This document shows, piece by piece, positions 1,213 through 26,754 of a stretch of 64,000 nucleotides of DNA; position 1 is the first letter of the stretch; each line of letters begins with the position of its first letter. The stretch covers positions 4,614-68,613 of the forward strand of contig LCKI01000003.1 in the NCBI GenBank assembly GCA_001001345.1, read 5' to 3'. Both the position numbers and the translations under genes were made by a program. Below the pieces are notes generated by a model. That model did no database searches and was not told the origin of the DNA. It saw only the letters and a list, made by a program, of their open reading frames with translations. The stretch is from Parcubacteria group bacterium GW2011_GWC1_45_14. Its GTDB lineage: Bacteria; Patescibacteriota; Minisyncoccia; Moranbacterales; GWC2-37-73.

Positions 1213-2085
1213 TCAACAGGTGGCCGATTTTTTGACGCTTTCTTCCAATTTCTTCGCATTTCCGTGACTCAGCAATCCCAAATAAGACTGTATCGTCTCA
1301 TTTTTTGGATTTTTCGTAATATTCTTCATCATTCTTCTCTTCGTGCTGGTCCGCAATATCCTGTGATGCGGGAAATGCACCCATCCCAGAAAATCAACTC
1401 CCGAAGCGTACGTCTTTATGAAGACCTTATCCGGATGAAGCGTGAGTTTCAATCTTGTTTCCAAGAAATCACTTATTTTCGGCAAAACATTTTCCAAGTA
1501 TGCCATATCGTCATGCAGAATTACAAAATCATCCGCATATCGTATATAGTGGCGGATTTTTAATTGGCGTTTCGCAAATTGGTCGAACTCATTCATATAG
1601 ATGTTCACCAGGAGTTGCGAAGTCAGATTGCCGAGCGGTAGCCCGATTCCTATTTTTCCGTTAAAACTTTCTATGACTTGCGAAAGGAGCCGTAAAACAT
1701 CCCTATCTCCGATACGTTTCGATAAGATGACTCTTAAGATACTGTGATCTATGCTTGCGAAGAATTTCCTGATGTCGCATTTCAAAACCCAACACGTCTG
1801 GGTATTATTCCTTGAAACCTTGAGACTGAAACATTGAAAACGATCCATGGCCCTATGCGTGCCTTTATCTAACCTACAGGAATATGAGTCATGGATGAAT
1901 TTCCTGTCAAAATGCGGATACAGGATCCGATGAATGGCGTGATGGAGCAGGCGGTCGCGCACGCTCGCTTTATGGATGTCGCGCGGTTTGGGATCGTTTA
2001 TCTTGAAAGCTTTATAACCTCCGTGCCGGTATGTTTTATCCGCAAGTTCGCGGTGAAGCGCGAGGATGTTGTCCATGAAATGCAC
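1213..2085 (-). CDS. DGR-type reverse transcriptase. The annotated ORF starts at GTG 2085, but the conserved N-terminus continues in-frame upstream to 2253.
   Basis: RT motifs are present: 'LKCDIRKFFASIDH', the DGR-specific 'GLPLGNLTSQLLVNIY' (an IGxxxSQ variant) and 'YIRYADDFVIL'. The same frame is open upstream through 'IYDNIISFDNLLISWREFLRGKRKRKDVAEFQ', which resembles the N-terminal region of the Bordetella phage bRT. Confidence 0.85.
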   Translation of the reverse strand: MHFMDNILALHRELADKTYRHGGYKAFKINDPKPRDIHKASVRDRLLHHAIHRILYPHFDRKFIHDSYSCRLDKGTHRAMDRFQCFSLKVSRNNTQTCWVLKCDIRKFFASIDHSILRVILSKRIGDRDVLRLLSQVIESFNGKIGIGLPLGNLTSQLLVNIYMNEFDQFAKRQLKIRHYIRYADDFVILHDDMAYLENVLPKISDFLETRLKLTLHPDKVFIKTYASGVDFLGWVHFPHHRILRTSTKRRMMKNITKNPKNETIQSYLGLLSHGNAKKLEESVKKSATC

Positions 2086-2200
2086 CTGGAATTCGGCGAC
2101 GTCTTTCCGTTTCCTTTTTCCACGTAAAAATTCCCGCCAAGAAATTAGCAGGTTATCGAAAGAAATGATATTATCGTATATATGAAAAAGACTCCCTTTA

Positions 2201-2226
2201 CTCTCTCTCTCTCTCTCTCTCTCTCT
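2201..2226. repeat. (CT)13 dinucleotide microsatellite, which is (GA)13 on the RT coding strand
   Basis: Perfect ctctct... run. It lies inside the open upstream extension of the RT frame, where it translates as (ER)n. Confidence 0.95.
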
Positions 2227-2267
2227 CGAAAAATGCCTCTGTTCTCCAGCGGATCAAAGAGGGATAT

Positions 2268-2618
2268 TTGATTTGGATGGATGTTTCCGTTCATATTCCT
2301 AAAAGTGCGCGCTATACTATCGGCGCAAGGATTGAAAATAAATATCTTGATCTGCTTGAACTTGCCCGCGTCGCCTACTTCACTGGCAGAGAAGAAACCG
2401 AAAATAAAATCAAGAGAATATCGGACTGCATCTTCGTTTTGGACGCCTTGAAATTTTTGGTAACCGTAGCTTGGGAAGCCAAACTGCTTTCAAACAAACA
2501 CTACGAAAACGTGGGACTGAAACTGGAAGAAATCGGCAGGATGCTTTGGGGTTGGATGGAGGGATTGAAAAACCCTGAAAAGAAAAACCGCGCCTTTGAC
2601 GGAACGGAAAAGAAATGA
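2268..2618 (+). CDS. avd: DGR accessory variability determinant (Avd-like four-helix-bundle protein, 23S rRNA IVS protein family). The likely true start is ATG 2277.
   Basis: About 113 aa. 'KSARYTIGARIENKYLDLLELARVAY...LDALKFLVTVAWEAKLLSNKHYENVGLKLEEIGRMLWGW' fits the Avd/IVS four-helix-bundle signature. It is adjacent to the TR and RT. Confidence 0.7.
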   Translation: MIWMDVSVHIPKSARYTIGARIENKYLDLLELARVAYFTGREETENKIKRISDCIFVLDALKFLVTVAWEAKLLSNKHYENVGLKLEEIGRMLWGWMEGLKNPEKKNRAFDGTEKK

Positions 2619-2754
2619 CTTTCGGAAACGGAAGACAAACTCATTGTCGGCATTCCACCTATTGTCAGACTTCGCCCAGTTGTCGTTCAGCCACGACTTG
2701 CCGTCATTGTTCCGGTTCACGTTGAACACGTGCGGATTACCGTCAGAGTCGATT
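2618..2754 (-). repeat. DGR template repeat (TR)
   Basis: 137 bp, about 87% identical to 3082-3218. Every mismatch is a T on the + strand, which is an A on the minus (sense) strand, in this copy. On the minus strand it reads ...NRNNDGKSWLNDNWAKSDNRWNADNEFVFRFRK, rich in AAC codons. Confidence 0.88.
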
Positions 2755-3061
2755 CGTATGCAACGCCATCCATATCACTGCCCGCTCAAATTGGAGCTGT
2801 GCTGTATTTTATTCGGGATCTAAAATCCTCCAGCGTCGCATACCAAGTCTATTTTCTTTATTTTGAAAATATCGTTCCATATCACAAAAAGCCTTGGCCG
2901 TTTGCGCTTCGGGAACGTACTTGCAGAAAGGTTCCAAAAAGCCGTAACCGTTTGGCATGACCAATCTATTCTAAAGTATACCAAATTTTAAAGATTGGAA
3001 GAAATTCCAAAGGATCAAAAAGTCAAAAATTCAAAGTGACAGAATAAAATAATTCAAGGTT

Positions 3062-5005
3062 TCAAGATTCCAAAGAGTTTAACTTGCGGAAACGGAAGAC
3101 AAACTCATCGCCGGCACTCCACCTATCGTCAGACTCCGCCCAGTCGTCGCTCAGCCACGACTCGCCGTCACAGTACCGGTACACGAAGAACACGTGCGGA
3201 CTACCGTCAGAGTCGACAATCTGCTTCATAGCGATCCAAAAATAATCTCCAGGGGACTGCTGTCTGCCGAAAATATCCTCGTAATGGAGGCGCAGGTGAG
3301 GTCCTGTTTCCGGAGGGCACAGATCCAGCCCCAGTTCTTCGGCCCTTTTGTAAATTTGATCCGTTGTCGCTCCGGCGAGAAAACCTAAATCCTTAACCTT
3401 GAGTTTTACGAATTTGACCTGCTCCTTGTTTTCAAGTGTGAAAAATTCATCCCTTTTCAACATGGTTTCCACACCACTGGAAATATATATCTTATCATCC
3501 CCTTCCGCTTTCTTTCTGCTTTCCAGTTCTCTTATGATATTTTCCTTACTTTCCCCTCCCATCCAAGCATCGAATCCTGATATTTTTCCTTCGGGGAAAG
3601 AGGTGTGGATATGCTCGATTCCTTTTGAGAAAATTCCTTCAAAAAGCGGTCCGACATACGTCTTGGTGTTTTCATCGATGTCCTCTTTTTTCCAGGCAAT
3701 TTCAGAGGGATCACGTTCGAACACGACAGGCGCGTCTTCTTGCGCGATCCTTTGTTTCCTTAACTGCTCAATGCGTGGATCCTTATCATAGCCGAAACCT
3801 TCGATCGCATGGTTTATTTCATATAAAAATAATAAATCCTCTTTGGAAAAATGTTCGCCAATTTCCTGTTTCTTCACAAGCTCCGTCACTTTTTTCATAT
3901 CGGAAGCTTTCTTGTCATACGATTCCCCTCCGGGAAGCGAGTGGTACTTTTCCTGCGCGATATCCACCAGTTCCGGTTCGAGCTCCTGCCTGTGATTCAC
4001 TCCGCGCACTTCCCCGACCTTGTCTCCGTCCATACGGATAGCCACGCGCGGCTCGGTATATCCGCCGTTCTCTCCTTTCAGATAATACACATAGAAATCA
4101 CCGCCTTGGAGATGCGCTTGGGCGCTTCCGGTCGCCGTACACCATCCGGTTCCTTTATTTTTGAGATCGTTTTCCAGAATGTAATGATCGCTTCCTTGGT
4201 CATATTTCCTCCATTCCCCCTCGATCTTCTCACCGTTAAGTTCCATGGCTTTGCCGGCAGTTTCAACTAGCGCGAATGCGTACAGTTTCGAAAAATCTTT
4301 CGCATTGAGCAATTTTTCCAATGTATTTTTCTTTTCTGCAAGTTTCGTTTTTTCTTCATCCGATTGGCCTTCCCATGGCTCGAATTCTTTCTGGTCTATT
4401 CCCTCGTCGAGTTTTTTAAAAACCCAGCCCAACGCTTCGGAGTTGAGTTCCGGAAAAGGTGCGACTGTCGATTTCGCCCTCTTGGAAAATTCCAGAGTTT
4501 CCTTGCTCAATATTCCCATCTTCTCGATGCTCCGCATCACGAAATATCGGAACCACATCGGATGTTTCGAATCGTTCTGCTTCAGATAATCAAGCCACGC
4601 GGAAAGTGTCTTGCGCTGGATTTCGGCTTTTTCCATGACGAGCGGTTTGTATTTCTCGACAATCTCCTGCGTCGAACCGAACTTTTGGATATCCGCTCCA
4701 CGGCCCTGTTCGATTGCGATACGCTTTTCCGATTCATAAAGACCTTCCGCGATCTTCTCAAGCGTTTCAGGATTTTCCACATTCAAAGTAAAGCGGCTTA
4801 GAATGCGTCTTTTGAGAAGTTCGTATCCATGGTCATTCTCAACGATCGCCTCGAGACGGTCCAAATACGTATCCACCCGTTCCTGCTTGTTTTCAGGTCC
4901 CGGTTCCCCTTCGCGGAGATTTTTAGCCACCGCGCGTTCCACCGGCTTGGAGCCGGCAAGGTCGGGATATTTTTGAGGGAGAAAGTGTTTTTCCATATGA
5001 GGCAA
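3062..5005 (-). CDS. DGR target (variable) protein, 647 aa, with the VR at its C-terminus
   Basis: Long ORF whose last roughly 45 codons are the VR. There is no obvious N-terminal signal peptide. An extended -10 (TGgTATAAT) sits just upstream of the start. Confidence 0.8.
   Translation of the reverse strand: MPHMEKHFLPQKYPDLAGSKPVERAVAKNLREGEPGPENKQERVDTYLDRLEAIVENDHGYELLKRRILSRFTLNVENPETLEKIAEGLYESEKRIAIEQGRGADIQKFGSTQEIVEKYKPLVMEKAEIQRKTLSAWLDYLKQNDSKHPMWFRYFVMRSIEKMGILSKETLEFSKRAKSTVAPFPELNSEALGWVFKKLDEGIDQKEFEPWEGQSDEEKTKLAEKKNTLEKLLNAKDFSKLYAFALVETAGKAMELNGEKIEGEWRKYDQGSDHYILENDLKNKGTGWCTATGSAQAHLQGGDFYVYYLKGENGGYTEPRVAIRMDGDKVGEVRGVNHRQELEPELVDIAQEKYHSLPGGESYDKKASDMKKVTELVKKQEIGEHFSKEDLLFLYEINHAIEGFGYDKDPRIEQLRKQRIAQEDAPVVFERDPSEIAWKKEDIDENTKTYVGPLFEGIFSKGIEHIHTSFPEGKISGFDAWMGGESKENIIRELESRKKAEGDDKIYISSGVETMLKRDEFFTLENKEQVKFVKLKVKDLGFLAGATTDQIYKRAEELGLDLCPPETGPHLRLHYEDIFGRQQSPGDYFWIAMKQIVDSDGSPHVFFVYRYCDGESWLSDDWAESDDRWSAGDEFVFRFRKLNSLES
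3082..3218 (-). repeat. DGR variable repeat (VR), encoding the C-terminus of the target protein
   Basis: Homologous to the TR. It differs at about 18 positions, all corresponding to TR adenines. It encodes ...YRYCDGESWLSDDWAESDDRWSAGDEFVFRFRK. Confidence 0.88.
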
Positions 5006-5074: not shown

Positions 5075-5105
5075 CCTGATTCCTGATTCCTGATTCCTGA
5101 TTCCT
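5075..5105. repeat. (CCTGATT)4.4 heptamer tandem repeat
   Basis: cctgatt x4 plus cct. It lies in the recA 3' UTR, which is also the region upstream of the DGR target gene. Confidence 0.9.
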
Positions 5106-5128
5106 AAAGCCTAAATCCTAATTCCTGC

Positions 5129-6145
5129 TTATATCTTGGCTTTGGCCGCAATTTCCTTAAAGATCTTTTGCGCGATCTTCTCATTTTCCCGAAGGAAAGT
5201 CTTGGCGGCCTCCCTGCCGACTCCCAATTTCACTTCCTCGAAGGTATATGAATTTCCTGATTTTTTGACAACCTCGAACTTCACTCCGGAATCAATGATG
5301 TCTCCGGCCAGCGAAATCCCCTCGTTATACATGATGTCGAATTCCGCGACTTTGAAAGGCGGAGCGACTTTGTTTTTGACGACTTTCACCTTCACCCTGT
5401 TGCCGACCACATCTTCGCCTTTCTTGATCTGGGCGGATCTTCTGACCTCAAGCCTGACCGAAGAATAAAACTTGAGAGCCTGCCCTCCGGAAGTGGTCTC
5501 AGGATTACCGAACATCACTCCGATCTTCATCCTGATCTGATTGATGAAAATGACGATGACATTGGACCTGGCGACGATGGCGGTGAGTTTTCGCAGGGCC
5601 TGGGACATGAGCCTGGCCTGCCTTCCTACATGCTGGTCTCCCATCTCTCCCTCGATTTCAGCTCTGGGAACCAAGGCGGCGACGGAGTCGATAACGACCA
5701 CGTCCACGGCGTTGGAGCGGACCAGCGTTTCCACGATGTCGAGCGCCTGTTCTCCCGTGTCCGGCTGGGAAACCAACAGGTCGTCGATTTTAACTCCGAT
5801 CTTCTTGGCATATTCCGGATCAAGAGCGTGTTCGGCATCCACGAAAGCCGAAGTCCCTCCTTTTTTCTGGGCGTTCGCGATGATGTGAAGCGCCAAGGTG
5901 GTCTTTCCGGATGACTCAGGTCCGTATACCTCGATTATCCTGCCCCTCGGCACTCCGCCGATTCCCAACGCGATATCCAAGGAAACCGAACCGGTCGGGA
6001 TCGACTCCACGTCGACCCTGCGGACATCCCCCAGCTTCATGATCATCCCCTCGCCGAACTTCTCCCGGATTTCACTCACCACGTTATCCACCTTCTTGTC
6101 ATCTGCGACCGCCCCTACTTCCGGCTTCGTTGTTTTCTTTGCCAT
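5129..6145 (-). CDS. recA: Recombinase RecA
   Basis: 338 aa. Walker A 'GPESSGKTT' and the canonical RecA core '[18 protein letters not shown]...[13 protein letters not shown]'. Confidence 0.97.
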
Positions 6146-6228: not shown

Positions 6229-7221
6229 TTATAAAGCGCGTCCATCGGGGGTGAAAACAATGTCGCGCACTACACCTGATTCGCTGCTTAAAATTTCTTC
6301 TTCCTTTCCTTCCAATTTTATATGGGTATCGTTTCCCTTTCCGGATGTCACGCTTATCTTCTCCTTGGCTGTGAACTTCTGCACCGAATCCGGAAGCAGG
6401 ACCCCGCTATACATCAAATTCCCATCAGCTTCGACTGAAATCCAAGTGGGATTGGATGAAACATAGAGCTCCATATCGAACTCCTCCTTGTTCCCAGCAT
6501 CTTCCCCCTCGGAAGCGCCCGCTCCGGAAGATGGGGATTCCACGTTCTGATAATTGGCGTTGACTGAAACGGTCTGCCTGGATTCCTTATCAAACTTGTT
6601 CCTGGCTACCACGGTTATGGCGTTGAGCCCTTCCCGAAGTCCCACATCCTCACTGAATTCTCCCTTCTCGTTGACCAAAATAGGCTGGTCGTTTATGAAA
6701 AGCTGGGCGTTTTTTTCCGCCACCCCTGCTATCCTGACGGTTCTTCCGTCCACACTGGACCCGTCGGACGGGGTCATGACGACCAATCTTGGCATGGAAA
6801 CGAAATTGTTGACCTGCCGGTATAAATACAGGAATCCCGAAAAAACGAACAGGACGCTCAATGTTATTATGATTATCTTGGGAGTCACCACGAAACTTGA
6901 AAACTTTATCGGCTTTATCTCCTTGTTGCCCGCATCTTCCCCTTTGATATTCTGCGCTATCTTCTGTTCCCTTTCGTATTGCTTGAGAAGCGACTGTCCG
7001 CTTATCCCCATGAAGATGGCATAGTTGCGGAGGAATCCTTTGACATAAACCTGTGCCGGAAGCTTGGAATAGTTCCCTTCCTCAAGATACTCCAGATATT
7101 TCACCTGCACGCGCGTGCTCTTGGAGATTTCACTCAAACTCAAACGGCGTTCCTCGCGAAGCTTTTTCATTTGCTCCCCAAGAGTCATCGAGTCTATCTT
7201 TTTCGTAGTGAATCGCACCAT
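6229..7221 (-). CDS. HTH (XRE-like) domain membrane protein, RodZ-like
   Basis: N-terminal 'LGEQMKKLREERRLSLSEISKSTRVQVKYLEYLE' HTH, a single TM segment, then a Ser/Gly-rich extracellular region. Confidence 0.55.
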   Translation of the reverse strand: MVRFTTKKIDSMTLGEQMKKLREERRLSLSEISKSTRVQVKYLEYLEEGNYSKLPAQVYVKGFLRNYAIFMGISGQSLLKQYEREQKIAQNIKGEDAGNKEIKPIKFSSFVVTPKIIIITLSVLFVFSGFLYLYRQVNNFVSMPRLVVMTPSDGSSVDGRTVRIAGVAEKNAQLFINDQPILVNEKGEFSEDVGLREGLNAITVVARNKFDKESRQTVSVNANYQNVESPSSGAGASEGEDAGNKEEFDMELYVSSNPTWISVEADGNLMYSGVLLPDSVQKFTAKEKISVTSGKGNDTHIKLEGKEEEILSSESGVVRDIVFTPDGRAL

Positions 7222-7331
7222 AGCTGAAAAATTTCTAATTCCTAATTACTAATTTCCGATCAAACCTCCTTGCCCGGCGCCGAAGTCTAAAAAATATTTC
7301 TAGGTCGACCAGGAATCCTTACATTTGCCAT

Positions 7332-9624: not shown

Positions 9625-10287
9625 TCAGATACTGACGAACGCCACCGGTAGCACTTTCTTGAAAGTCCCCGCGATCATGATCGAATCCGTTTCCGAAATG
9701 TAGATCGGATGGTGCGTCTTGTTCGTGGATTCAGGGAAAAGCCCGATAACCCCGTCCCCTAACTTCTTAAAACGCTTGATGGTCGCCATGCCGTTGATGA
9801 CCGCGACCACCGTTTTGCCGTCGAGATCGTCGAATCCTTCCGCTTTCTCGAAAATCACGTAATCACCGTCGTTTATTCCCGCTTTGTTCATGGAATCCCC
9901 CAGGGCTTTGACTGCGAAAAGCTTTTTCGGATCGGCCTTGAAAAAAAGATTCTTGGAAATCTGCAGGAAGTCGTCCGCCGCCCCTCCATCCGCATAGGCC
10001 AGAGCCTCCCCGCAGGAAGCCAGACCATAAAGCGGAAGGGAAATCACGCTGTTGAGATTGGAATAATTTTTGTTCTCGACGAGATAAATCCTTTTCTGCT
10101 CATCCCTCTTAATGAGGTCCTTTTTCTCCAGGGCCTCGACTACCTGCATGACCGACTTGAGGCTCTCCTCCACCCCCATGGAAGAAAGCTGTTTGTGCAG
10201 GCGGTAACCGGTCGGGTTCTCCTTCCGGCTCTCGATCGCCTCCCTGATCGACTCGAGAATGTTTTTCTGTTTTGAAGTGAGTTTCAT
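9625..10287 (-). CDS. lexA: LexA repressor
   Basis: 220 aa. N-terminal wHTH, C-terminal S24 peptidase with 'GDSM' Ser and 'TIKRFKK' Lys. Confidence 0.85.
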   Translation of the reverse strand: MKLTSKQKNILESIREAIESRKENPTGYRLHKQLSSMGVEESLKSVMQVVEALEKKDLIKRDEQKRIYLVENKNYSNLNSVISLPLYGLASCGEALAYADGGAADDFLQISKNLFFKADPKKLFAVKALGDSMNKAGINDGDYVIFEKAEGFDDLDGKTVVAVINGMATIKRFKKLGDGVIGLFPESTNKTHHPIYISETDSIMIAGTFKKVLPVAFVSI

Positions 10288-10295
10288 GTATTTCT

Positions 10296-10338
10296 CTACG
10301 AATTACGAATTTTGTACGAATATACGAATGTACAAAAG
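10296..10338. promoter_or_regulatory. Operator-like repeat block upstream of lexA: 4x TACGAAT plus a TTTTGTAC-N12-GTACAAAA palindrome
   Basis: Read directly from the sequence, 10-50 nt upstream of the lexA start on the minus strand. Confidence 0.4.
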
Positions 10339-10371
10339 CATAATCTTAAGCTTAAATATAATGCATCAAAT

Positions 10372-10956
10372 CTATCGCTTTTTAGATTCAAATCCTATTT
10401 TATTTTTTCGGGATTTCATATCTGGATCTTCCTTTTTTAAAAACTCCCTCAATGTGTCGAAAATTATTTTGAATCTTTTATCATATCTCCTTTCCATCTC
10501 TTCGATCCTGGTCCTCAGTTCCTTGTTGCTGATTATCATTTCCCGAAGCTTCACGAATGTCCTGATAATCTGGATATTCACTTCGATAGCCCTGCGGCTA
10601 TTCAAGACGCTTGATAACATCGCTACGCCTTGCTCCGTGAAAACATATGGCAAATATCGTCTGCCTCCATAACCTGAGGTGACAATTTGGAACCTCAAGT
10701 TTTCAAATTCCTTCTTATTGAGCTGAAACATGAAATCATCAGGGAAGCGAGCGATGTTTCGTTTAACCGCCTTGTTGAGATTTTTCGTTTCAACGTCATA
10801 AAGAACGGCTAAATCGCTGTCCAGCATCACTTTCTTGCCTCTTGTCAGAAAGATTTTACTCTCTATTGTTTCTTGCGGGACTGGGATTATGTCGGATTTT
10901 ATATTTTTCATTTTTGTTTTTTCAAGCAGGCTGTCTTCGGGTAGTCGGAGTATCAA
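10372..10956 (-). CDS. ORF6N-domain protein (phage antirepressor-like, KilA-N-related)
   Basis: 'KVMLDSDLAVLYDVETKNLNKAVKRNIARFPDDFMFQL...YLPYVFTEQGVAMLSSVL' matches the ORF6N consensus. Confidence 0.7.
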   Translation of the reverse strand: MILRLPEDSLLEKTKMKNIKSDIIPVPQETIESKIFLTRGKKVMLDSDLAVLYDVETKNLNKAVKRNIARFPDDFMFQLNKKEFENLRFQIVTSGYGGRRYLPYVFTEQGVAMLSSVLNSRRAIEVNIQIIRTFVKLREMIISNKELRTRIEEMERRYDKRFKIIFDTLREFLKKEDPDMKSRKNKIGFESKKR

Positions 10957-18316: not shown

Positions 18317-19816
18317 TCAAACTGATTTCAATACCTTCCAAATTTCAACCATGGCTAGGGTGTCGAGGTGGCAATAGTCTTTGAGTGCCTGTATCTTAAC
18401 ATTTTTATCCTCCTCGGAGTATTCTCCTGACACGATACGGTTCCAAGTGTCCGAAGCGGTGCCTCCTTCTTGGATATACAAATTCTTATATGAAAGATGG
18501 GGCACAAGGGCCGGCAAGACATATTTTATCGAAGCGCTTCCCTTGAATGCCGGATGGTCATACATTGTCGTTTTTCCATAAAATGGAATCATCAGGTCAA
18601 CGATGCGATCATTAACTTTTTGCATAAAATCATGATATTCCAGCAAGCGTTGCCCGATTTCCTCATTCCTGCTTTTTTCAAAGCTTTGATTCCAAACGAC
18701 CACACTTCCCTTTTTTGGAAGATGCACTTCCAACGCTTTGGTAAAATGCTCATCAGGGCACCCAGATCCCGTATAAATAAAATCGAAATGTTCCAATTCG
18801 CTCTCATGCGAATCAATCACATGCAGAGAAAACTGGAAAGTAATTTGCTGGTATGGTTTGTATCCGTCATATCTCGGCACGGCAGAAGGGTATGTTTCAT
18901 AATCAAGAAAAGACAATGGATATTTCCAATTTTGCAAAAATTCAACAATGCCTTTTTTATCGATATATTCCTTGCCTGATTGCGCTGTATCAACTTGTCT
19001 TCTTTGATTGTCAGACAACTTGAAATCTTCCGGAACATCTTTGATGCTGAAAATTCCACTATCAACCAATTCTGCTAGCTTTTTCTTGCTGGTGCCGATT
19101 CTTGAAATTTCATGAACCGAATATTCCGGAAGATCAGAATTTGAATACCACGAAGTCGTGCAATGTGAATTTTTACCTTTCAAAATACAGTCGCAGTGTC
19201 CCTTTGGTTCATTTTCATTGGACAGTAATTCATAGGCGCCTTCCATCTTGTTTTTCACATCCTCCAGTTTTTCATTCACCTTGTCGGTCAAATTTTCTAT
19301 CAAAAAGAGCTTTTTTAAATCAAGCTCTCCTCGGCGCACATATTCTTTGTTTAGTCTGATCAAATTCAAAGTTCCCACTTCAACACCCAGATCATTCAAA
19401 ACATTTTTCTGAAAAGCCATATCGATCAAATAGTCTTCGGCTTTCCTTCCGCCATTTTCTTCCGTGCTTGTCGAAGATTTTACTTCATACAAATCATAAA
19501 CGTTTTTTTCAGGATTAAAAACAAATATATCAGCTACGGCATAATATCTTTCCGTGGCAAAAACCGGCTGATAAATCACAGGGGTCCTGTTTTCCATGAG
19601 CTTTTTTGTGTATTCAGCGTCATCACGGGATTCGACGAGCACACCACCAGGGAAAAGACCGCGCGCAAGCTCATCGATCTGATTGCCGGTGTCGATAATA
19701 TTCTGCTCAAAAGAAGAAAGCGCTTTTTGCTTGTACACCTCGGGCCTGTGAATTTTAAGCCAAGCGTTTTTCGCACAATCGAGGCAGATCAGAAAATTTG
19801 TTTTTGATAATTTCAT
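18317..19816 (-). CDS. DUF2779-like nuclease with an N-terminal PD-(D/E)xK and a C-terminal DnaQ-like exonuclease
   Basis: 'YYAVADIFVFNPEKNVYDLYEVKSSTS' looks like a PD-(D/E)xK motif. 'LSFLDYETYPSAVP' is an Exo-I-like DEDD motif. Confidence 0.55.
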   Translation of the reverse strand: MKLSKTNFLICLDCAKNAWLKIHRPEVYKQKALSSFEQNIIDTGNQIDELARGLFPGGVLVESRDDAEYTKKLMENRTPVIYQPVFATERYYAVADIFVFNPEKNVYDLYEVKSSTSTEENGGRKAEDYLIDMAFQKNVLNDLGVEVGTLNLIRLNKEYVRRGELDLKKLFLIENLTDKVNEKLEDVKNKMEGAYELLSNENEPKGHCDCILKGKNSHCTTSWYSNSDLPEYSVHEISRIGTSKKKLAELVDSGIFSIKDVPEDFKLSDNQRRQVDTAQSGKEYIDKKGIVEFLQNWKYPLSFLDYETYPSAVPRYDGYKPYQQITFQFSLHVIDSHESELEHFDFIYTGSGCPDEHFTKALEVHLPKKGSVVVWNQSFEKSRNEEIGQRLLEYHDFMQKVNDRIVDLMIPFYGKTTMYDHPAFKGSASIKYVLPALVPHLSYKNLYIQEGGTASDTWNRIVSGEYSEEDKNVKIQALKDYCHLDTLAMVEIWKVLKSV

Positions 19817-19903
19817 ACAATATATTTCTTAACCTTCAGGGATTTGTTTCAGTTATTGATCATCACTAATTATATTTTTCTCTTACAAGACATTCTCACA
19901 TTC

Positions 19904-20284
19904 TCAAGAATGTGAGAATGTCTTCAGGAATTTTTGGATGGCTTGGCCATAGGGGGAAAGCTCGTGGACGACCAGGCGACCCATATTCCTTTTTCTCACG
20001 AGCCCGGCTTGTTCCAGGCGCAAGATATGGGCGGAGATGGTCTTGAGGTTGCACTTCAATATCGCGGAAACGGAATCCACGCTGATTCCCTTCTTCTCCG
20101 CGATCAGGAAAAGGATTTCGATCCTTCTGTGGTTCGCCACACCCTTAAGGTGCCGTTCCATCTGCTTGGAGGATTTTTCCTGGCGGACTTTTTCCTTGGG
20201 ATATTTTTTTCTTTTTATCGCAAGCATAAGTTTATACTCACATTTTACCCCCAAAACCCTCTCCGGACAACATTCTTTAGCCAT
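19904..20284 (-). CDS. ArsR/SmtB-family transcriptional regulator
   Basis: 'HRRIEILFLIAEKKGISVDSVSAILKCNLKTISAHILRLEQAGLV' is a wHTH signature. The true start is probably an internal Met. Confidence 0.65.
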   Translation of the reverse strand: MAKECCPERVLGVKCEYKLMLAIKRKKYPKEKVRQEKSSKQMERHLKGVANHRRIEILFLIAEKKGISVDSVSAILKCNLKTISAHILRLEQAGLVRKRNMGRLVVHELSPYGQAIQKFLKTFSHS

Positions 20285-20324
20285 TGACTTGTGGCTGTGG
20301 GATTATGAGGAGGATATAGAAAAG

Positions 20325-20489
20325 CTATTTCCAATCTTTAATTATGATTGTTTTGCCCTTGGTTTCGATGACAAGTTTCTGACGCTCGCGGATTTTTAGC
20401 GCGTCCACGATTTCAGCGGGGATGTTGATTGAGAGGCTGCGCTTCCCCTGCCTCGTCACCTTGCGCACGAATTTTTCTCCTTTTTTCAT
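20325..20489 (-). CDS. Small AbrB/MazE/SpoVT-family, antitoxin-like DNA-binding protein; absent from the ORF track because it is under 60 aa
   Basis: Translated by hand: MKKGEKFVRKVTRQGKRSLSINIPAEIVDALKIRERQKLVIETKGKTIIIKDWK, a looped-hinge helix pattern. Confidence 0.5.
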   Translation of the reverse strand: MKKGEKFVRKVTRQGKRSLSINIPAEIVDALKIRERQKLVIETKGKTIIIKDWK

Positions 20490-20545
20490 ACTCTCTTGTC
20501 ATTCCAGCCTTTAAGCCGGAATCTATATTAATTTTTTATTATAGT

Positions 20546-20573
20546 CATAATTCCACGGCCGTGGAATTATGAC
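20546..20573. repeat. Perfect 28-bp palindrome TCATAATTCCACGGCCGTGGAATTATGA
   Basis: Same family as 16252 and 17032. It lies in the region upstream of the AbrB-like and ArsR genes. Confidence 0.8.
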
Positions 20574-20610
20574 TATGTTGAAAATACAGGTGTTACGTAG
20601 CATGTTACGT

Positions 20611-20640
20611 AGCGCAAAAAGGTACCTGACCTTTTTCTTT
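20611..20640 (-). terminator. Terminator closing the four-gene RM operon
   Basis: aaaggtcaggtaccttt hairpin plus a T-run on the minus strand, directly after the 20641 stop. Confidence 0.5.
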
Positions 20641-21612
20641 TTAGTCATTGATATTCTTTATCAGCAGATCAATCCATGCATCCGTATAAATATAATCCTT
20701 ATGCGGTTCATCATATTGGCAATATTCTACTTTACAACTTTTTGAATTTGGCCTAACATTGTATTTTTTCCACATCTTGGTGTGCCAACTCATTGTCTTT
20801 TTTTGCTTTGTTCTTTCTTTAATAATTTCCAACACACTTGTTGGCTTATGCTTTCCTTGGTTTGCAACTTGAATATTTTTTTCTTTTATCCCTACAATAA
20901 ATTTCTCATATTTTTTCATTTCCTCACTATTGCTTTGATCAAACTTAACATACTCAACAGCAACATCAGATGAATTACGATGATTACCTAGCTTAGGAAT
21001 AAAAAAAGCTTTGAAAGAAAATTTTTGAGAATCTGAAATGTCAGCAGAAAGAGAATTTCTAAAAGTTTTAATAAAATCAATAATTTTTTCATCTTGTTTT
21101 GATTTTGGCAAGGTTTTTCTTTGTTCTGTAAATTGCAATGGTATGAAGAGATTTTCTACAATGGAATGCTTATCTCCAAACTCTTGCACTAGAAGCTCCT
21201 CAAAATTCAATAGCAATGACTGACATTCACCAGAAATCATAGGGTCTATTATTGGCATAAACCTATGTTCAATTTTATTTCTTATCTCATAAAAAAAGGA
21301 AATATTTTTTAAAACTGGACTATTTTCATCCTTATAGAATTCTGTTGCGGAGTCTAATAATCCCCAAGCCTTATTTTCTCCATTAATTTTTTTAAATCTT
21401 TTTGGATTTTTTTCGTCTAGATAAAAATATTTAACCCTTTGTTTTTCAAAAATAGCATGGAACAATGATGTCCAAGCTATGCACATTAAAACCACAAATC
21501 CACCGGCACGAAATGAAGTCTTCGGCTTATTATAAATATCCACACCCAACAAAGCTGACTCCTTTGCTTTTTCTAATAAATTTGAAACTTTTCCGGGTAA
21601 TCCTCTAGACAT
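20641..21612 (-). CDS. DUF3644-like protein, last gene of the RM operon
   Basis: N-terminus 'ALLGVDIYNKPKTSFRAGGFVVLMCIAWTSLFHAIFEK' resembles DUF3644, assigned from memory. Confidence 0.4.
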   Translation of the reverse strand: MSRGLPGKVSNLLEKAKESALLGVDIYNKPKTSFRAGGFVVLMCIAWTSLFHAIFEKQRVKYFYLDEKNPKRFKKINGENKAWGLLDSATEFYKDENSPVLKNISFFYEIRNKIEHRFMPIIDPMISGECQSLLLNFEELLVQEFGDKHSIVENLFIPLQFTEQRKTLPKSKQDEKIIDFIKTFRNSLSADISDSQKFSFKAFFIPKLGNHRNSSDVAVEYVKFDQSNSEEMKKYEKFIVGIKEKNIQVANQGKHKPTSVLEIIKERTKQKKTMSWHTKMWKKYNVRPNSKSCKVEYCQYDEPHKDYIYTDAWIDLLIKNIND

Positions 21613-21627
21613 ATATCAATATCCTAT

Positions 21628-22392
21628 TTATATTCTTTTCATTTGACTAATAATAGCGTTTGCAAGGTCACGTTTATCAATCAAAAAGTTATCCCATTTA
21701 TTTGCTTCATTTCTCTTTCTGCCCGCAACAAATCCAAACATTGCCTTTCCATTGTTGGAAATTTTATTTGCAAGTCGCACAAAGTCAGGACCTGGAACAA
21801 ACCAAAGATAATCCCAGAGATCACCTTCCTCCGTGTCAAAATAACAAAAAATTGTGGCCGTTGAGTAGTGATCATTAACACCAGAAGCCTTTGCTGTTGC
21901 AGTGAAAATCTCATCGGGATTATTACCAAAACGACTTTTGATCTGGATATACATCGTTTTCAAACTTCCTTTCTCCTTAACAATCAAATCAATTCCCTCA
22001 TCATCAGAAATTGGTTTATAACACGACAAGGTTGTATCGCCATATAAAATAACAAGCTCTGCAATTCGAGCCTCTGCGATATCTCCTTTTTGTTTCGTGG
22101 AAACATCTTTTGAAATGTTGTGAGTTTTATCTTCTTTTTGCGACTTTGATTTTACAGTTTCCCTGAATTCAGGATTCAATCCAAATGTCGAAGGTGCGGT
22201 CTTAATAAAACGAGATTTTTCTTTCTTTGAATTTGTATCAACAACAAGCTGAGCATTCATAGTGGCTTTTGGTGTTTTTCCTGCTGTTTTTAACCAACCC
22301 CTATCAAGAGCAACTTGTGTAATGTCGTTACTATGCAATGGCTTTCCAATTTCTTTTAATATTTGAAAAGCGATTTCTTTAAAAGAATTCAT
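21628..22392 (-). CDS. HARE-HTH domain fused to a PD-(D/E)xK restriction-endonuclease-like domain
   Basis: N-terminal 'EIAFQILKEIGKPLHSNDITQVALDRGWLKTAGKTPKATMNAQL' is a HARE-HTH. C-terminal 'DDEGIDLIVKEKGSLKTMYIQIKSR' is a D..(E)xK-type nuclease motif. Confidence 0.55.
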   Translation of the reverse strand: MNSFKEIAFQILKEIGKPLHSNDITQVALDRGWLKTAGKTPKATMNAQLVVDTNSKKEKSRFIKTAPSTFGLNPEFRETVKSKSQKEDKTHNISKDVSTKQKGDIAEARIAELVILYGDTTLSCYKPISDDEGIDLIVKEKGSLKTMYIQIKSRFGNNPDEIFTATAKASGVNDHYSTATIFCYFDTEEGDLWDYLWFVPGPDFVRLANKISNNGKAMFGFVAGRKRNEANKWDNFLIDKRDLANAIISQMKRI

Positions 22393-22404
22393 GCAATTTT
22401 ATTA

Positions 22405-25140
22405 TTAAAAAATATTTTTTCTAATGTTATACAAAGTTTTCAGCGAACCAATTATATTATCCCTATATTCTGAAATACCGAATGCATCAAAAACCACATC
22501 GTCAAATTCTTTCCTATCACTACTTCTTAACTCATCTAAAATTGGCAGAATTTCTCGATTTTTTAAGACAGCAAATTTTTTCTTTATATCGTCTTTTTGT
22601 TTGTCAGATAACAAATCAGAATTTAAAATTTGCAGACTATTTTTCATCCGAGTTGAACTCAAGTCAAGAGCCCCTAATCCTCTTCCAAATCCCAACGCTT
22701 CAATAAAGAAAATTCCTAAAACACTATTTAACAGTGCCTGCGATAAATCGATATCGATATCGATATTTTTAGCAGTAAATCTCGTCAAGCGCTGATTAAC
22801 GAAAGATCTTTTTTCAAGTTTGGCAACGAAAATTCTCTTATCAAAATTCATACTCGTGACTAAATCTGCCATTGTTGAATTATTCATTTCATACCAGAAA
22901 TATCCAGCCCTCTTTAAAGCATCCGGTAATAGCTTATCCCCACTAGTGTTAAATTCATGTTCGAATTTTCTGATCCAATTTAACGCTCCCGTGTGTCCAA
23001 GCTTTTGTAAATTTTCCAACGATTCAGAACAGCAAAATGATTCTGATTCAGCTTGCGTCACAAGCATATTTATATCTCTTGATGATTTTAAAACAGGCTG
23101 TAAATATTCCGCCTCAATGTTATGCCCAGACTCTGGATAAAACATCGCGTCCCATCCTCTTCTTTCTCCCCTGTTAATATCAAACAAATTACTAGCCAAA
23201 ATAAGTTTATTTTCTATATCTTTAAGCCATGAAACATCGCTAAATAATGCACTCCAATTTAACGTAAAGTCAGACAATTCTTTGGTTTTATATTTTCGAA
23301 TAATTACATGTTCACTTGAAAGGCCAGCCAACACATTTTCCAAAACTTCACCGACCTTTTGATTATCAGTTTCCTTCTGCAAATCAAAATCAATTGTTAT
23401 GAAATTAGTAACTTCATCCTCATTGATTTCATTTAATAAATTTCTTCTATTTAAAATTAGAATGGTAGTTACAACATCAGCATTATTAAACCACCTTCCC
23501 TTACCTGAAATTAATATGGACTCGATGTGATAAAACTTATTCAGAGCAACCTTGAAAGCTGAACCCCATTCTGTACCGAGCCAAGAATTAGAAGTGATAA
23601 TTCCCAGCCTGCCGCCTGTCTTTAATATTTTCCATAAATAAAAAGGTATATATGCATATAAATCACTTTTTGCTTTTAGACTTAAATTTTCACCTAAAAG
23701 ATTTTCAAAAATTTCCCTTGTATTTTCTTTTATATTTGGATTCAAAATCTCTAAATCTTCTTGCTGAATGAATGGCAAATTAGAAGCAATGTAATTAACG
23801 CCCTCATACTTTTTAACGACGGGCTTACCTGTGTAGGGGTCTTTGAATTCAATGTCTTGTCCAATGAAAACATTAGTGCAGTCTTCCTTGAAAATTTGAA
23901 TAATCTCTCCAATATTTACTGGCTCTGTTAATGCGATTGTCGCCATTTGAAGAGGAAAAGCAACCTTGTCACTAGAAAAAATAGTTTTTAATGAATCCTT
24001 AGAGCTTATCCCTGATTCTTTTTTAATATCGTACGCACATCTTGCGATGGTTCCAGTTCCACAGCATGGATCATGAAAGGTTAACTCCTTATTTAACATT
24101 ACTAGACCGGTTAACAACCGAGCCAAAAACATTGGTGTTGCATATTGACCGGCAATTTTTCTTTTTGAAGAATAGATAATATCTTGCAAAAGCTCCTGAA
24201 GGAGTTCTTGACCCACGGATGACAATTCAACATTATTTAATAAGACATTCAATTGGATAATCTCCGACCACGATTCATCTGTTAAATAGTTTTCACCGAG
24301 CTGTGGCTGAAAAATATTCCAAAAATTACATTCGGCAGATATTTCTTGAAAAATTATTTCAGCTTCTTCAACGGAAGTTTCATCCTTAATCAATTCTATT
24401 TTTTTGGCTGGATCAAAGAATGCAATAAGAATATGTGCAAATAGAATCTTGTTAATCCAATTTATCAATATTATTTTAGATAGGATTTCCCATTGATTTT
24501 GTTGCGGATAGTCAAGCTTCGCAACTCGCCACCAAATGTTCGCTTCAGCTGAAAATCGCGCATCTTTCGTGGCCGCTTTTTTTAAATTCTCCGCAACGCC
24601 TGTATCATTTCTTAAAATAAAGTCTACTATCTCACTATCCTTAAAGGACTCTATGAATGTTTTTTTCTCGATAAAACCACTTTCAAAAAAAGCATTAAGA
24701 TCCTTTAATATTTCTTGAAGTAACTTTTTCCATTCATCCTTAAATTCATCAACCTTATCTCTTGTTGTAATTGATTTCTTTAAACTATCCCAAAGTTTAG
24801 CTGGTTCAAATTCGTTGTCCTTTTTTACATACAAAACAGCAACTCCCACATTCCAAAGCAAGAAACTATTCAAGCCCAATATATTTGCCTTTAAAATTGC
24901 GTTCTTAATAAACTCTTCATCTGTAACCAACGTGTCAGGCATCTTTAACTCCCAACCCATTAAAATTTCACTATTACGTCCATACAAAAGAACATCAGGA
25001 AATAGTCTCTTTTTTCCAGTATTTATTGTTGTTTCTCCACCAGCCCTGTCAATTGTCTTATTTTTTGCTGAAGAATATGCATTAATCTCCGAAATGAGAT
25101 CAATTGCCCAACTTCTTTCATTGTAAGAAGTTTTTGCCAT
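22405..25140 (-). CDS. Type IIG (MmeI-like) restriction-modification enzyme: PD-ExK endonuclease, gamma-class N6-adenine MTase and TRD
   Basis: 911 aa (MmeI is 919 aa). N-terminal 'FPDVLLYGRNSEILMGWELK' is a D-ExK motif. MTase motif I is 'HDPCCGTGTI' and motif IV is 'SNLPF'. A long C-terminal target-recognition region follows. Confidence 0.75.
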   Translation of the reverse strand: MAKTSYNERSWAIDLISEINAYSSAKNKTIDRAGGETTINTGKKRLFPDVLLYGRNSEILMGWELKMPDTLVTDEEFIKNAILKANILGLNSFLLWNVGVAVLYVKKDNEFEPAKLWDSLKKSITTRDKVDEFKDEWKKLLQEILKDLNAFFESGFIEKKTFIESFKDSEIVDFILRNDTGVAENLKKAATKDARFSAEANIWWRVAKLDYPQQNQWEILSKIILINWINKILFAHILIAFFDPAKKIELIKDETSVEEAEIIFQEISAECNFWNIFQPQLGENYLTDESWSEIIQLNVLLNNVELSSVGQELLQELLQDIIYSSKRKIAGQYATPMFLARLLTGLVMLNKELTFHDPCCGTGTIARCAYDIKKESGISSKDSLKTIFSSDKVAFPLQMATIALTEPVNIGEIIQIFKEDCTNVFIGQDIEFKDPYTGKPVVKKYEGVNYIASNLPFIQQEDLEILNPNIKENTREIFENLLGENLSLKAKSDLYAYIPFYLWKILKTGGRLGIITSNSWLGTEWGSAFKVALNKFYHIESILISGKGRWFNNADVVTTILILNRRNLLNEINEDEVTNFITIDFDLQKETDNQKVGEVLENVLAGLSSEHVIIRKYKTKELSDFTLNWSALFSDVSWLKDIENKLILASNLFDINRGERRGWDAMFYPESGHNIEAEYLQPVLKSSRDINMLVTQAESESFCCSESLENLQKLGHTGALNWIRKFEHEFNTSGDKLLPDALKRAGYFWYEMNNSTMADLVTSMNFDKRIFVAKLEKRSFVNQRLTRFTAKNIDIDIDLSQALLNSVLGIFFIEALGFGRGLGALDLSSTRMKNSLQILNSDLLSDKQKDDIKKKFAVLKNREILPILDELRSSDRKEFDDVVFDAFGISEYRDNIIGSLKTLYNIRKNIF

Positions 25141-25146
25141 ACTGAT

Positions 25147-26754
25147 TTACTTTAAACTTAATTTCTCTTTTGCTAATTCAACCCTGTCATTGCATATTTT
25201 TACATAGTCAATCTTTTTATCTTTAAATAAGTGCACGTCGGTATTTTTTTCAATTCCAACAAAATCCCTGCCTTCAACAACAGCGGAAACCAAAAAACTT
25301 CCGCTTCCGCATGTATTGTCCAGAATAATTTCGCCAGGATTGCTAAATGTTCTTATTAGATACTGACCAAGTTCTACTGGTTTTTGAGTAGGATGATATA
25401 CTTTTCCTTCGCTTTCTGCGGTTTTGAAATAAACAACATCAATTGGGTATCTCTCTCCATCGCTCTTGACCTCAACAGGTTTAAAATCACCATAACTTCC
25501 AGTAAGTTGATTTTTCCTAACACCCTTATTATATGCCTCTCCTTTTCTCATTTGTGGATTATAAGTTGGCTGTGTTTTATAAAAAACACAGATATCCTCA
25601 TGCTTTCTTAATGGCTGTTTTTTTGCATTCAAAAAATTTGTTGGTTTTGATTTTTCCCAAATTATTTTATATTTAAATAATTTCTCATTACTTAAAATTA
25701 GTTTTGCTGTAAATAATCCTTGAGCTGTTAATACTATTGCGCCGTTGTCTTTTATTATCCTCTCGTATTGCTCCCATAATTTATCCAAAGGAATAACACT
25801 ATCCCATTTATTTTGCGTAGTTCCATAAGGAAGATCACACAAAATCATATCGATAGATTTGTCTGGGATTTTTTTCATCACATCCAAACAATCTCCCGAA
25901 TGAACTTTATTTACAAAATCTTTTATTTCTTTCCTCAAAACTGGTTTTTTTATATTACTCATCGGAAAGTTATTTGCCTCAAAAGCCTGCTCCTCGAGAC
26001 TTGTCTCATAGGCCGTCTTTTCAGTTTCAAGTAATTCAAACAGAGCTGCCTGCGCTCCCTCAGCAACATAATCAAGGCTTTTATTTTTACCCTTTAGATC
26101 TTCAGAAAAACTATAACTTCCCTCACTAGAAGTAATTATAAAATCAATCACATTTATACCGAGAAGTGATCCTGCCTCTGCAATTTTTTTTATGACTTCA
26201 ATATCTTTCTCACTTGGCAAAGGATCCCCGGAAGGATGATTATGAACCAAAACTATACTTGCTGCCCTGAGTTCAAGTGCTGGTGCAAATATTTCTCTTG
26301 GATGAATAAGACTTTTGTCAAGCAAGCCTATGGTTATTGTTTCTTTTTTTATCAACACATTTCTAGCATTCAAATAGAGACACACGAGATATTCTTTCTT
26401 TTTATCTCTCAAACCATAAGTGAGGGAAAGGACACTATTTGAATTTTTAATAACAATTTCATTCCCCCTTCCTTCTTCATAATATCTTTTAACTAGCGCT
26501 ATCGCAGATGAAATTTGCAAGGCTTTTGCTTTTCCAATTCCCTTAATTTGGAGCAAATCGTCAACGGACGAGCTTAAAAATTTTACACCAAATTTTCTTA
26601 TAATTTGTTCCGACAATTCTTTCACATTCTTTCCCATGATTCCACTACCAAGAAGTATGGCAAGTAGTTCACTTTTCGTAAGTGCATCTGAGCCCTTTTT
26701 TAGAAATTTTTCCCTAGGACGATCAACTCTTGATATATCTTTTATTTTTGCCAT
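25147..26754 (-). CDS. RadC-like JAB/JAMM domain fused to a beta-class (N4/N6) DNA methyltransferase
   Basis: RadC 'VLVHNHPSGDPLPSEKDIEV' at residues about 170-190. MTase motif IV 'ILCDLPYGT' precedes motif I 'ILDNTCGSGSFLVSA', which is the beta-class order. Confidence 0.75.
   Translation of the reverse strand: MAKIKDISRVDRPREKFLKKGSDALTKSELLAILLGSGIMGKNVKELSEQIIRKFGVKFLSSSVDDLLQIKGIGKAKALQISSAIALVKRYYEEGRGNEIVIKNSNSVLSLTYGLRDKKKEYLVCLYLNARNVLIKKETITIGLLDKSLIHPREIFAPALELRAASIVLVHNHPSGDPLPSEKDIEVIKKIAEAGSLLGINVIDFIITSSEGSYSFSEDLKGKNKSLDYVAEGAQAALFELLETEKTAYETSLEEQAFEANNFPMSNIKKPVLRKEIKDFVNKVHSGDCLDVMKKIPDKSIDMILCDLPYGTTQNKWDSVIPLDKLWEQYERIIKDNGAIVLTAQGLFTAKLILSNEKLFKYKIIWEKSKPTNFLNAKKQPLRKHEDICVFYKTQPTYNPQMRKGEAYNKGVRKNQLTGSYGDFKPVEVKSDGERYPIDVVYFKTAESEGKVYHPTQKPVELGQYLIRTFSNPGEIILDNTCGSGSFLVSAVVEGRDFVGIEKNTDVHLFKDKKIDYVKICNDRVELAKEKLSLK

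Follow-up and report, generated by a model that had tools for sequence, protein, structure and literature searches.

How can a hypermutation cassette bear the marks of recent use when both genes that should drive it are out of frame with their own start codons? The question is raised by a diversity-generating retroelement (DGR) in a 64,000-nucleotide stretch of the genome of Parcubacteria group bacterium GW2011_GWC1_45_14 (contig LCKI01000003.1, forward-strand positions 4,614 to 68,613), which we call the window and whose own numbering we use. The DGR cycle is established in the Bordetella system: RNA of a template repeat (TR) is copied into adenine-mutated cDNA, which replaces a variable repeat (VR) in a target gene. 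In the window, a chromosomal target gene carrying the VR is followed by the TR, by avd on the opposite strand and by the reverse transcriptase (RT) gene. In this assembly avd and RT are both out of frame with their own starts, and the frame is lost in a simple sequence repeat (SSR) that the two genes share. We argue here that the shared SSR probably makes this a phase-variable DGR that stands in its OFF state in the window; that it switches is something we infer from comparisons of sequences.

The two genes overlap head to head by ~110 nt. On the + strand, avd (2182..2618) starts at ATG 2182 and reaches the SSR after six codons, its body running from 2229; on the - strand, RT (1213..2294) has a conserved core at 1213-2160 and a probable start at ATG 2294-2292. 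Only 68 nt separate the conserved N-terminus of Avd (NASVLQRIKEGY...) from the opposing one of RT (HIYDNIISFDNLL...), and within these 68 nt lies the tract (2201..2226), (CT)13 on one strand and (GA)13 on the other, which is translated as (LS)n in the Avd frame and as (RE)n in that of RT. The frames are codon-aligned in antisense: the avd ATG is, on the other strand, the CAT that encodes the in-frame His of the RT motif HIY. With 13 units, the open reading frame (ORF) from ATG 2182 stops after 29 amino acids and that from ATG 2294 after 49, and in the window no canonical RT start (ATG, GTG or TTG) comes between the conserved N-terminus and the tract; the only one is ATG 2294, which lies opposite the codon of a conserved Avd His. 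The mechanical RT ORF, at 1213-2085 with a GTG start, lacks this N-terminus, which extends to ~2160; past that point the RT frame continues across the (CT)n to ATG 2294. Simulation of the frames showed that 12 or 15 units open both genes (Avd of 144 or 146 amino acids, RT of 359 or 361), that 14 units truncate avd and RT alike and that 16 units give the frame of 13. The proteins expected from open alleles begin with MNGNIHPNQISLFDPLENR... for the long RT and with MKKTPFTLSLS... for Avd.

Such lengths do occur. Rifle-type groundwater metagenomes yielded, through exact-protein look-ups, independent assemblies of this population. In nine assemblies of the element that are at least 99.1% identical, the tract has 13 units (four of them), 14 (two), 15, a 31-nt length equivalent to 15, and 16, and the rest of the cassette is invariant save for VR sites and two single-nucleotide polymorphisms (SNPs). 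Public gene callers predict a 361-aa RT (P0242) and a 146-aa Avd where the contig has 15 units; on several contigs they annotate an Avd of 113 amino acids and an RT of 287. A search of JGI metagenome contigs with the exact flanks of the SSR locus returned no match.

Is a tract at this site peculiar to one population? We fetched 80 genomic loci encoding homologues of the target and located RT, Avd and TR/VR in each; RT and/or avd lie within 8 kb of the target in ~45 of them. At the avd/RT junction, (GA)6-21 or G8-14 is present in 30 of 37 such target-selected loci, and a long (GA)n or poly-G tract in 66 of 72 loci selected by their RT, an independent sample from many environments. Both samples together thus give a junction SSR in 96 of 109 related DGRs. 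Two more of the RT-selected loci have (GT)8 or (CTGG)9 at the junction and two have G7. The unit sizes are 1, 2 and 4, never 3. Elsewhere such repeats are rare: (CT)13 is the sole dinucleotide SSR of the 64-kb window, and in 1.09 Mb of related loci we found no dinucleotide SSR of at least six units away from the junction; the SSRs outside it are only three G/C runs of at least 8, A/T 8-9-mers and one (TAAT)4. The tract is in frame in 33 of the 92 SSR-bearing loci, a fraction no different from one third, and the frame is kept in six of the seven target-selected loci that lack a long tract. In relatives without an SSR, Avd runs directly ATG-...-NASILQRIKE. Among the tblastn matches across related loci, none showed avd or RT broken away from the SSR.

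The proposal that one tract acts on two genes depends on RT being translated across it. The start of RT overlapping avd does look real, because antisense stops are depleted there and a conserved His codon is kept as CAT. TTA, CTA and TCA read as stops on the RT strand. Over the 22 avd codons that follow the tract they account for only 5 of 151 Leu/Ser codons, against 153 of 615 in the rest of the gene (p=4e-11). Codons ending in A fall overall just from 43% to 28% in the first avd codons, and after correction for this we observe 5 antisense stops where ~25 are expected (P=4e-7). The conserved avd His is encoded 35 times by CAT and 3 times by CAC, the other His codons of avd 23 and 25 times (p=9e-6); these codon tests treat related loci as independent, and all their P values are optimistic to that extent. 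Relatives with a degenerated tract keep the long ORF intact, e.g. MRNEINPNQIPLFNSAKDRGATREGERGFGLRH....

Whatever the state of its genes, the locus is almost certainly a genuine DGR, because the mismatches between TR and VR fall on TR adenines only, the RT is nearest to that of Bordetella and Avd matches its known families. TR (2618-2754) and VR (3082-3218), both on the - strand, are 137 nt each, in register at an offset of 464; the repeat search of the window paired 2618-2752 with 3082-3216 at 88% identity. The original prediction, made from the DNA letters and their ORFs, counted about 18 differences, all at adenines of the TR sense strand. Our recount gives exactly 18 mismatches, every one a T on the + strand of the TR, i.e. 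an A on the sense (minus) strand, and none at any other base. As the TR sense strand has 38 A in 137 nt, the hypergeometric probability of this is 2.4e-12, and when two edge positions are dropped 16 of 16 mismatches still fall on A. The changes from TR to VR are 11 A>G, 6 A>T and 1 A>C, and 16 of the 18 are in first or second codon positions. The translations given for TR (...NVNRNNDGKSWLNDNWAKSDNRWNADNEFVFRFRK) and VR (...FVYRYCDGESWLSDDWAESDDRWSAGDEFVFRFRK) were reproduced. The further claim that AAC codons became Y, C, S, D and G has to be amended for two residues: the TR has five AAC and five AAT codons, and the VR Cys comes from AAT (to TGT) and the Gly from GAC (to GGC).

The VR codes for the last ~45 residues of the target. 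The TR shares the strand of RT, and at its 3' end it meets the avd stop codon (2616-2618, + strand). By its position in the alignment, the VR 3' end (GAGTTTGTCTTCCGTTTCCGCAAGT, 3082..3106, - strand) may act as the initiation of mutagenic homing (IMH) site; its 25 nt differ from the TR counterpart (2618-2642), the putative IMH*, only once, at TR adenine 2622. The repeat search of the window found no GC-rich inverted repeat after the VR; a GC-rich hairpin has been reported in only 34% of DGRs (PMC5758913). A scan of the 64 kb that tolerated any base at TR adenines found no further VR-like copy, leaving the single pair. Between the target stop and the TR, a non-coding spacer (2755..3061, - strand) has no conserved ORF and presumably holds the promoter of the TR RNA, although a sigma-70 consensus scan called none there.

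The RT matches Pfam RVT_1 and phrog_1423 (1.3e-103), and its best match in the PDB is the Bordetella bRT (8ub7_A, E=1.8e-50, query residues 2-298), with group II intron RTs thirty orders of magnitude behind (3.6e-20). The GNLTSQ motif on which the original prediction relied is present in the RT ORF: GLPLGNLTSQ aligns with GIPIGSLTSQ of bRT and fits the [ILV]GxxxSQ motif of the DGR clade, to which the RT is assigned by motif and profile matches. The opposite-strand Avd gene predicted between TR and RT is likewise borne out, with a match above the cut-off to Pfam bAvd (51.5 bits for a cut-off of 40, E 1.6e-13), one to the PHROG family 'Avd protein of DGR' (5.5e-16) and, below the cut-off of 80, one to NCBIfam DivGenRetAVD (58.3 bits, 7.7e-16). 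A sequence search of the PDB with Avd gave no match.

A promoter-like TTAGCA-18-TATTAT with an extended TG (2145-2174, + strand) ends 8 nt before the avd ATG 2182, inside the N-terminal coding region of RT. It matches the consensus at 9 of 12 positions, no better than the shuffled background; were it real, the avd mRNA would be nearly leaderless. Over the whole window, consensus scans for sigma-70 promoters and terminators gave no more matches than in shuffled sequence, and an Rfam search returned no family.

That the element has been recently active is supported, because a second VR allele, found in three population contigs, differs from that of the window only at TR-adenine sites. Two of these contigs (L002 and L003) differ from the window over ~3 kb only at seven VR positions (3111-3135), all of them TR-adenine sites, and the third (L001) has the same seven differences and four SNPs in recA. 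The TR is identical across all population contigs. Two VR alleles on an otherwise identical background fit mutagenic retrohoming, and they directly support the earlier statement that the cassette has been active. The VR heterogeneity confined to A-derived positions, which had been suggested as a check, is seen between assemblies at the consensus level, as just two alleles compared contig by contig. The differences are limited to the 3' part of the VR, which fits the conversion tracts described for DGRs, anchored in 3' and variable in 5' (PMC5758913).

The same three assemblies break inside avd within ~200 nt of the (CT)n, at window positions 2269 (L001), 2286 (L002) and 2391 (L003), and further contigs end near the tract inside avd (L090 at 2293, L091 at 2274 and L084 at 2420). 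Unresolved length heterogeneity among reads at the (CT)n would yield such breaks.

How might these elements work together? TR-containing RNA would be reverse-transcribed by a complex of RT and Avd with misincorporation opposite template adenines, and the cDNA would then replace the VR, rewriting ~18 codon positions on that face of a C-type-lectin-fold domain which binds the ligand. In the shared tract, mispairing of slipped strands would shift avd and RT in and out of frame, both together because one tract lies inside the two frames. The outcome would be a heritable and reversible ON/OFF switch for targeted hypermutation, of which the window would represent the 13-unit OFF allele, coexisting in the same groundwater population with 15-unit ON alleles. 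We further infer that tract length controls the levels of Avd and RT and hence retrohoming, and that switching is frequent and adaptive. Phase variation of this locus seems to us the probable reading; on the wider one, an adaptive, bidirectional frameshift switch controlling both genes across this Patescibacteria DGR clade, our opinion is evenly balanced.

Besides the optimistic codon statistics, several points weigh against the switch. The evidence for switching is at the level of consensus assemblies, and sequencing and assembly make errors somewhat readily in dinucleotide tracts. A fraction of about one third in frame is also expected from the neutral drift of a tract without function. The RT might also be shorter and begin beyond the SSR. 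In several relatives a TTG stands two codons ahead of the conserved His, or an ATG comes soon after the tract; at this place the window offers near-cognate ATA, ATC and ATT only. In that case Avd alone would be switched. Finally, slippage of the RNA polymerase could give in-frame mRNA from any allele, making of the tract an attenuator instead of a binary switch.

Three other explanations have been considered, in descending weight an RNA-level role, an incidental tract and simple decay. In the first, every allele would give a mixture of frames, because the RNA polymerase slips or the ribosome shifts frame on (GA)n or poly-G, and the tract would act as an attenuator that holds Avd and RT at low, roughly constant levels; in a variant of it, the purine tract would be a Shine-Dalgarno-like (SD-like) or structural element of the TR-RT RNA. 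Most tracts are indeed purine-rich on the RT strand, being (GA)n or poly-G, and some relatives, L050 and L059 among them, have an ATG right after the tract at an SD-like spacing (...GAGAGGAAAATG). Yet the non-purine (GT)8 and (CTGG)9 occupy the same site, and length polymorphism is seen directly at the DNA level in one population. Two thirds of the genomes are nominally OFF and most of these still have clean adenine-only differences between TR and VR, which speaks for such a role; but past ON phases predict this equally well. To our knowledge, slippage on dinucleotide repeats is no established mechanism. All in all, we regard an RNA-level role as unlikely.

The tract might instead be incidental, a linker of low complexity or a spacer left untranslated, in an ordinary DGR of the candidate phyla radiation (CPR) in which both genes start past the (CT)n, Avd at TTG 2268 or ATG 2277 and RT at a near-cognate codon near HIY or at GTG 2085, so that tract length has no effect on activity. 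The mechanical ORFs do start at TTG 2268 for avd and GTG 2085 for RT, the 113-aa Avd and 287-aa RT of the public gene callers go the same way, and an in-frame fraction of one third fits a tract under no frame constraint. These downstream starts, however, delete conserved protein that reaches the tract on both sides, NASILQRIKEGY in Avd and HIYDNIISFDNLL in RT, the latter a segment that aligns to bRT from residue 16. The relatives without SSR pass straight from the ATG into the conserved N-terminus. Moreover, an incidental repeat would hardly be almost the only such SSR across more than 1 Mb and sit at the same spot in ~90% of loci, and without translation across the tract the depletion of antisense stops and the conservation of CAT are unexplained. 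An incidental tract therefore strikes us as improbable. Simple decay, with avd and RT inactivated by frameshift and the VR differences left as relics, accounts for the two truncated ORFs of the window and recalls the decaying DGRs that adjoin close target homologues (an RT remnant in L005, degenerate TRs in L006 and L013), but it is very improbable given that the sole lesion is in the tract, that avd and RT have no other damage and match relatives from end to end at 60-72% identity, that in-frame 15-unit alleles coexist, that the population contigs share one TR and two VR alleles differing at adenine sites alone, and that no non-adenine change has accumulated among the 18 TR/VR mismatches. None of these rivals explains jointly the conservation of the site, the non-triplet units, the length variation within a population and the avoidance of antisense stops.

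What would such a switch diversify? The target gene (3062..4996, - strand) was predicted to encode 647 amino acids. The ORF stands, but that length counts from TTG 5005, where the mechanical ORF begins; the start is most likely ATG 4996, as in the homologues, which gives 644 amino acids. The N-terminal ~470 residues are strongly conserved in the homologue alignment, with the invariant motifs GTGWCTA, PRxAIR and EVRG, and the C-terminal ~175 form a C-type-lectin-fold domain carrying the VR in an AlphaFold2 (AF2) model with a predicted local distance difference test (pLDDT) score of 91.4, in answer to the suggestion that this end be modelled for such a fold. The Cys in GTGWCTA, likewise invariant, is residue 286 in the 644-aa numbering, and the target has a GNAT-like core. 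The last ~45 residues vary among homologues at exactly the VR positions. Homologues number more than 1641 database proteins, all annotated 'hypothetical' and all, where the source is named, from Patescibacteria; the family is found in 529 of 185,579 species genomes. In agreement with the prediction of an unknown N-terminal domain, no family in Pfam, NCBIfam, PADLOC or PHROG could be assigned to the target, and a profile search of the PDB gave nothing credible. Matches to MHC_I, Cpf1_PI and L22 were below threshold and were rejected. A PcfJ-like domain motif has been reported in some CPR DGR targets (PMC5758913); we also rejected this identity for the GTGWCTA region upstream of the VR, for which there was no supporting Pfam match. 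The predicted lack of a signal peptide was confirmed, no hydrophobic segment or signal peptide being found in the target (maximum Kyte-Doolittle hydropathy over 19 residues of 0.65), in agreement with the description of CPR DGR targets as lacking transmembrane segments or recognisable domains (PMC8144416). The target is apparently a cytoplasmic, CPR-specific protein.

Apart from the switch, the DGR is an ordinary member of a clade described between 2017 and 2021. In every locus with both genes, avd and RT occupy opposite strands, and the TR, on that of RT, adjoins the 3' end of avd. Relative to the target, the module 5'-TR, antisense avd, RT-3' is found both ways round, so that the TR is inverted relative to the VR in ten loci. 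The B3 layout 'TR-(avd)-RT' makes up 90% of CPR DGRs (Wu et al. 2018, PMC5758913). The inverted avd is standard CPR B3 architecture and no peculiarity of the window locus, and the RT belongs to DGR clade 2, which is confined to Patescibacteria (Roux et al. 2021, PMC8144416). The window element belongs to this CPR B3/clade 2 family, with which it shares gene order, orientation, host group, groundwater origin and a target likewise without recognisable domains or transmembrane segments (PMC5758913, PMC8144416). To the CPR DGRs as described in the literature searched, which mentions neither, our results add the overlap of avd and RT and the conserved SSR at their junction; they also delineate the GTGWCTA target family with its 529 genomes.

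The family of targets persists after the loss of the DGR, because its closest homologues (57-65% identity; L004, L005, L006 and L013) stand without a working one. No traces of a DGR are found in L004; L005 keeps a 59-aa remnant of RT (4007-4183), and L006 (10227-10354) and L013 (2241-2681) have TR-like copies with many non-adenine mismatches. Three other loci have TR copies with mostly adenine-only differences (L007 at 10176-10321, L010 at 10250-10391 and L073 at 10419-10552), and tblastn found neither RT nor avd in their fetched flanks; their RT could be divergent, distant or acting in trans. In L051 (CAYJED010000004.1, 6193-13274) the avd/RT junction with its poly-C14 is doubled (7167-7180 and 10536-10549), and ~3.4 kb with a second copy of the target lie between RT and avd. 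The 281 nt around the VR are identical between the copies, and the arrangement looks like a recent duplication or rearrangement within the DGR.

The prototype DGR, that of phage BPP-1 (mtd-avd-TR-brt), differs in many respects. The window DGR is chromosomal, not in a phage; its avd is inverted and placed between TR and RT, overlaps RT head to head and shares the SSR with it. The stretch of RNA past the TR 3' end, which corresponds to the 'Sp' priming region of BPP-1, runs antisense to avd; neither a GC-rich IMH nor a hairpin was found at the window locus, and the target is without tail-fibre features or export signal. Among the closest known systems is also TvpA of Treponema denticola, with the C-type-lectin fold of the formylglycine-generating enzyme (FGE) type found in DGR variable proteins.

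The tract itself has its best likeness elsewhere, in the SSR contingency loci of Neisseria, Haemophilus, Campylobacter and Helicobacter. As in these, the 5' part of the coding region holds a repeat whose unit is not a multiple of three, repeat lengths vary within the population and among orthologues, all three frames occur and lesions are confined to the tract. Here, unlike there, what would be switched is a mutagenesis machine rather than surface antigens or restriction-modification, a single tract serves two divergent overlapping ORFs and the hosts are CPR bacteria. In the full-text literature searched, which did not include Paul et al. 2017 (Nat Microbiol), no DGR was linked to phase variation or to an SSR, and the main text of Wu et al. 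2018 (PMC5758913) makes no mention of a junction tract. The shared-SSR switch is thus a probable new feature among CPR DGRs.

Constitutive hypermutation is costly, as most random variants of a binding site are useless, and a switch would bear on how DGRs are restrained. If our reading is true, cells would bet-hedge between diversifying and fixing a receptor variant. CPR bacteria are among the taxa most enriched in DGRs, and a stochastic switch would explain how bacteria with such tiny genomes afford them and fix useful VRs. Activity would follow the number of repeat units modulo 3 in most of the ~110 related elements sampled. We know of no description of such second-order control of evolvability for any DGR. 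The arrangement is also a rare case of two divergent genes sharing both a coding segment and a single frameshift-prone tract. More practically, in about two thirds of the loci annotators and DGR finders will give wrong or shortened calls for avd and RT, and they may score live elements as degenerate.

Some other features of the window deserve mention. Just past the RT stop at 1213, a 130-nt imperfect hairpin (1069-1198, - strand) with 19-nt terminal arms (TTTGTCATCTTGAGCGAAG and its complement) has a minimum free energy (MFE) of -68.7 kcal/mol (z = -9.5 relative to shuffles) and is single-copy in the window. It could be a terminator, an element like a miniature inverted-repeat transposable element (MITE) or a structured RNA; as a conserved part of the DGR it was rejected, for the sequence past RT in related loci was not found to contain it. 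A degenerate tandem repeat of heptamers (5075-5130), CCTGATT four times and then CCTAAAG/CCTAAAT/CCTAATT, lies between the recA stop on one side and the target gene's terminator and start on the other, and a similar TCTAATTCCTAATTACTAATT occurs at 7234-7254. In the spacer between the S18 gene and efp (304-368), the 16-nt ATACGAACGATACGAA is found twice in direct orientation and once inverted (353-368). Lastly, the region at ~19000-26000 has a G+C content of 0.33-0.36, against 0.45-0.51 elsewhere in the window, and may be an island of foreign origin.

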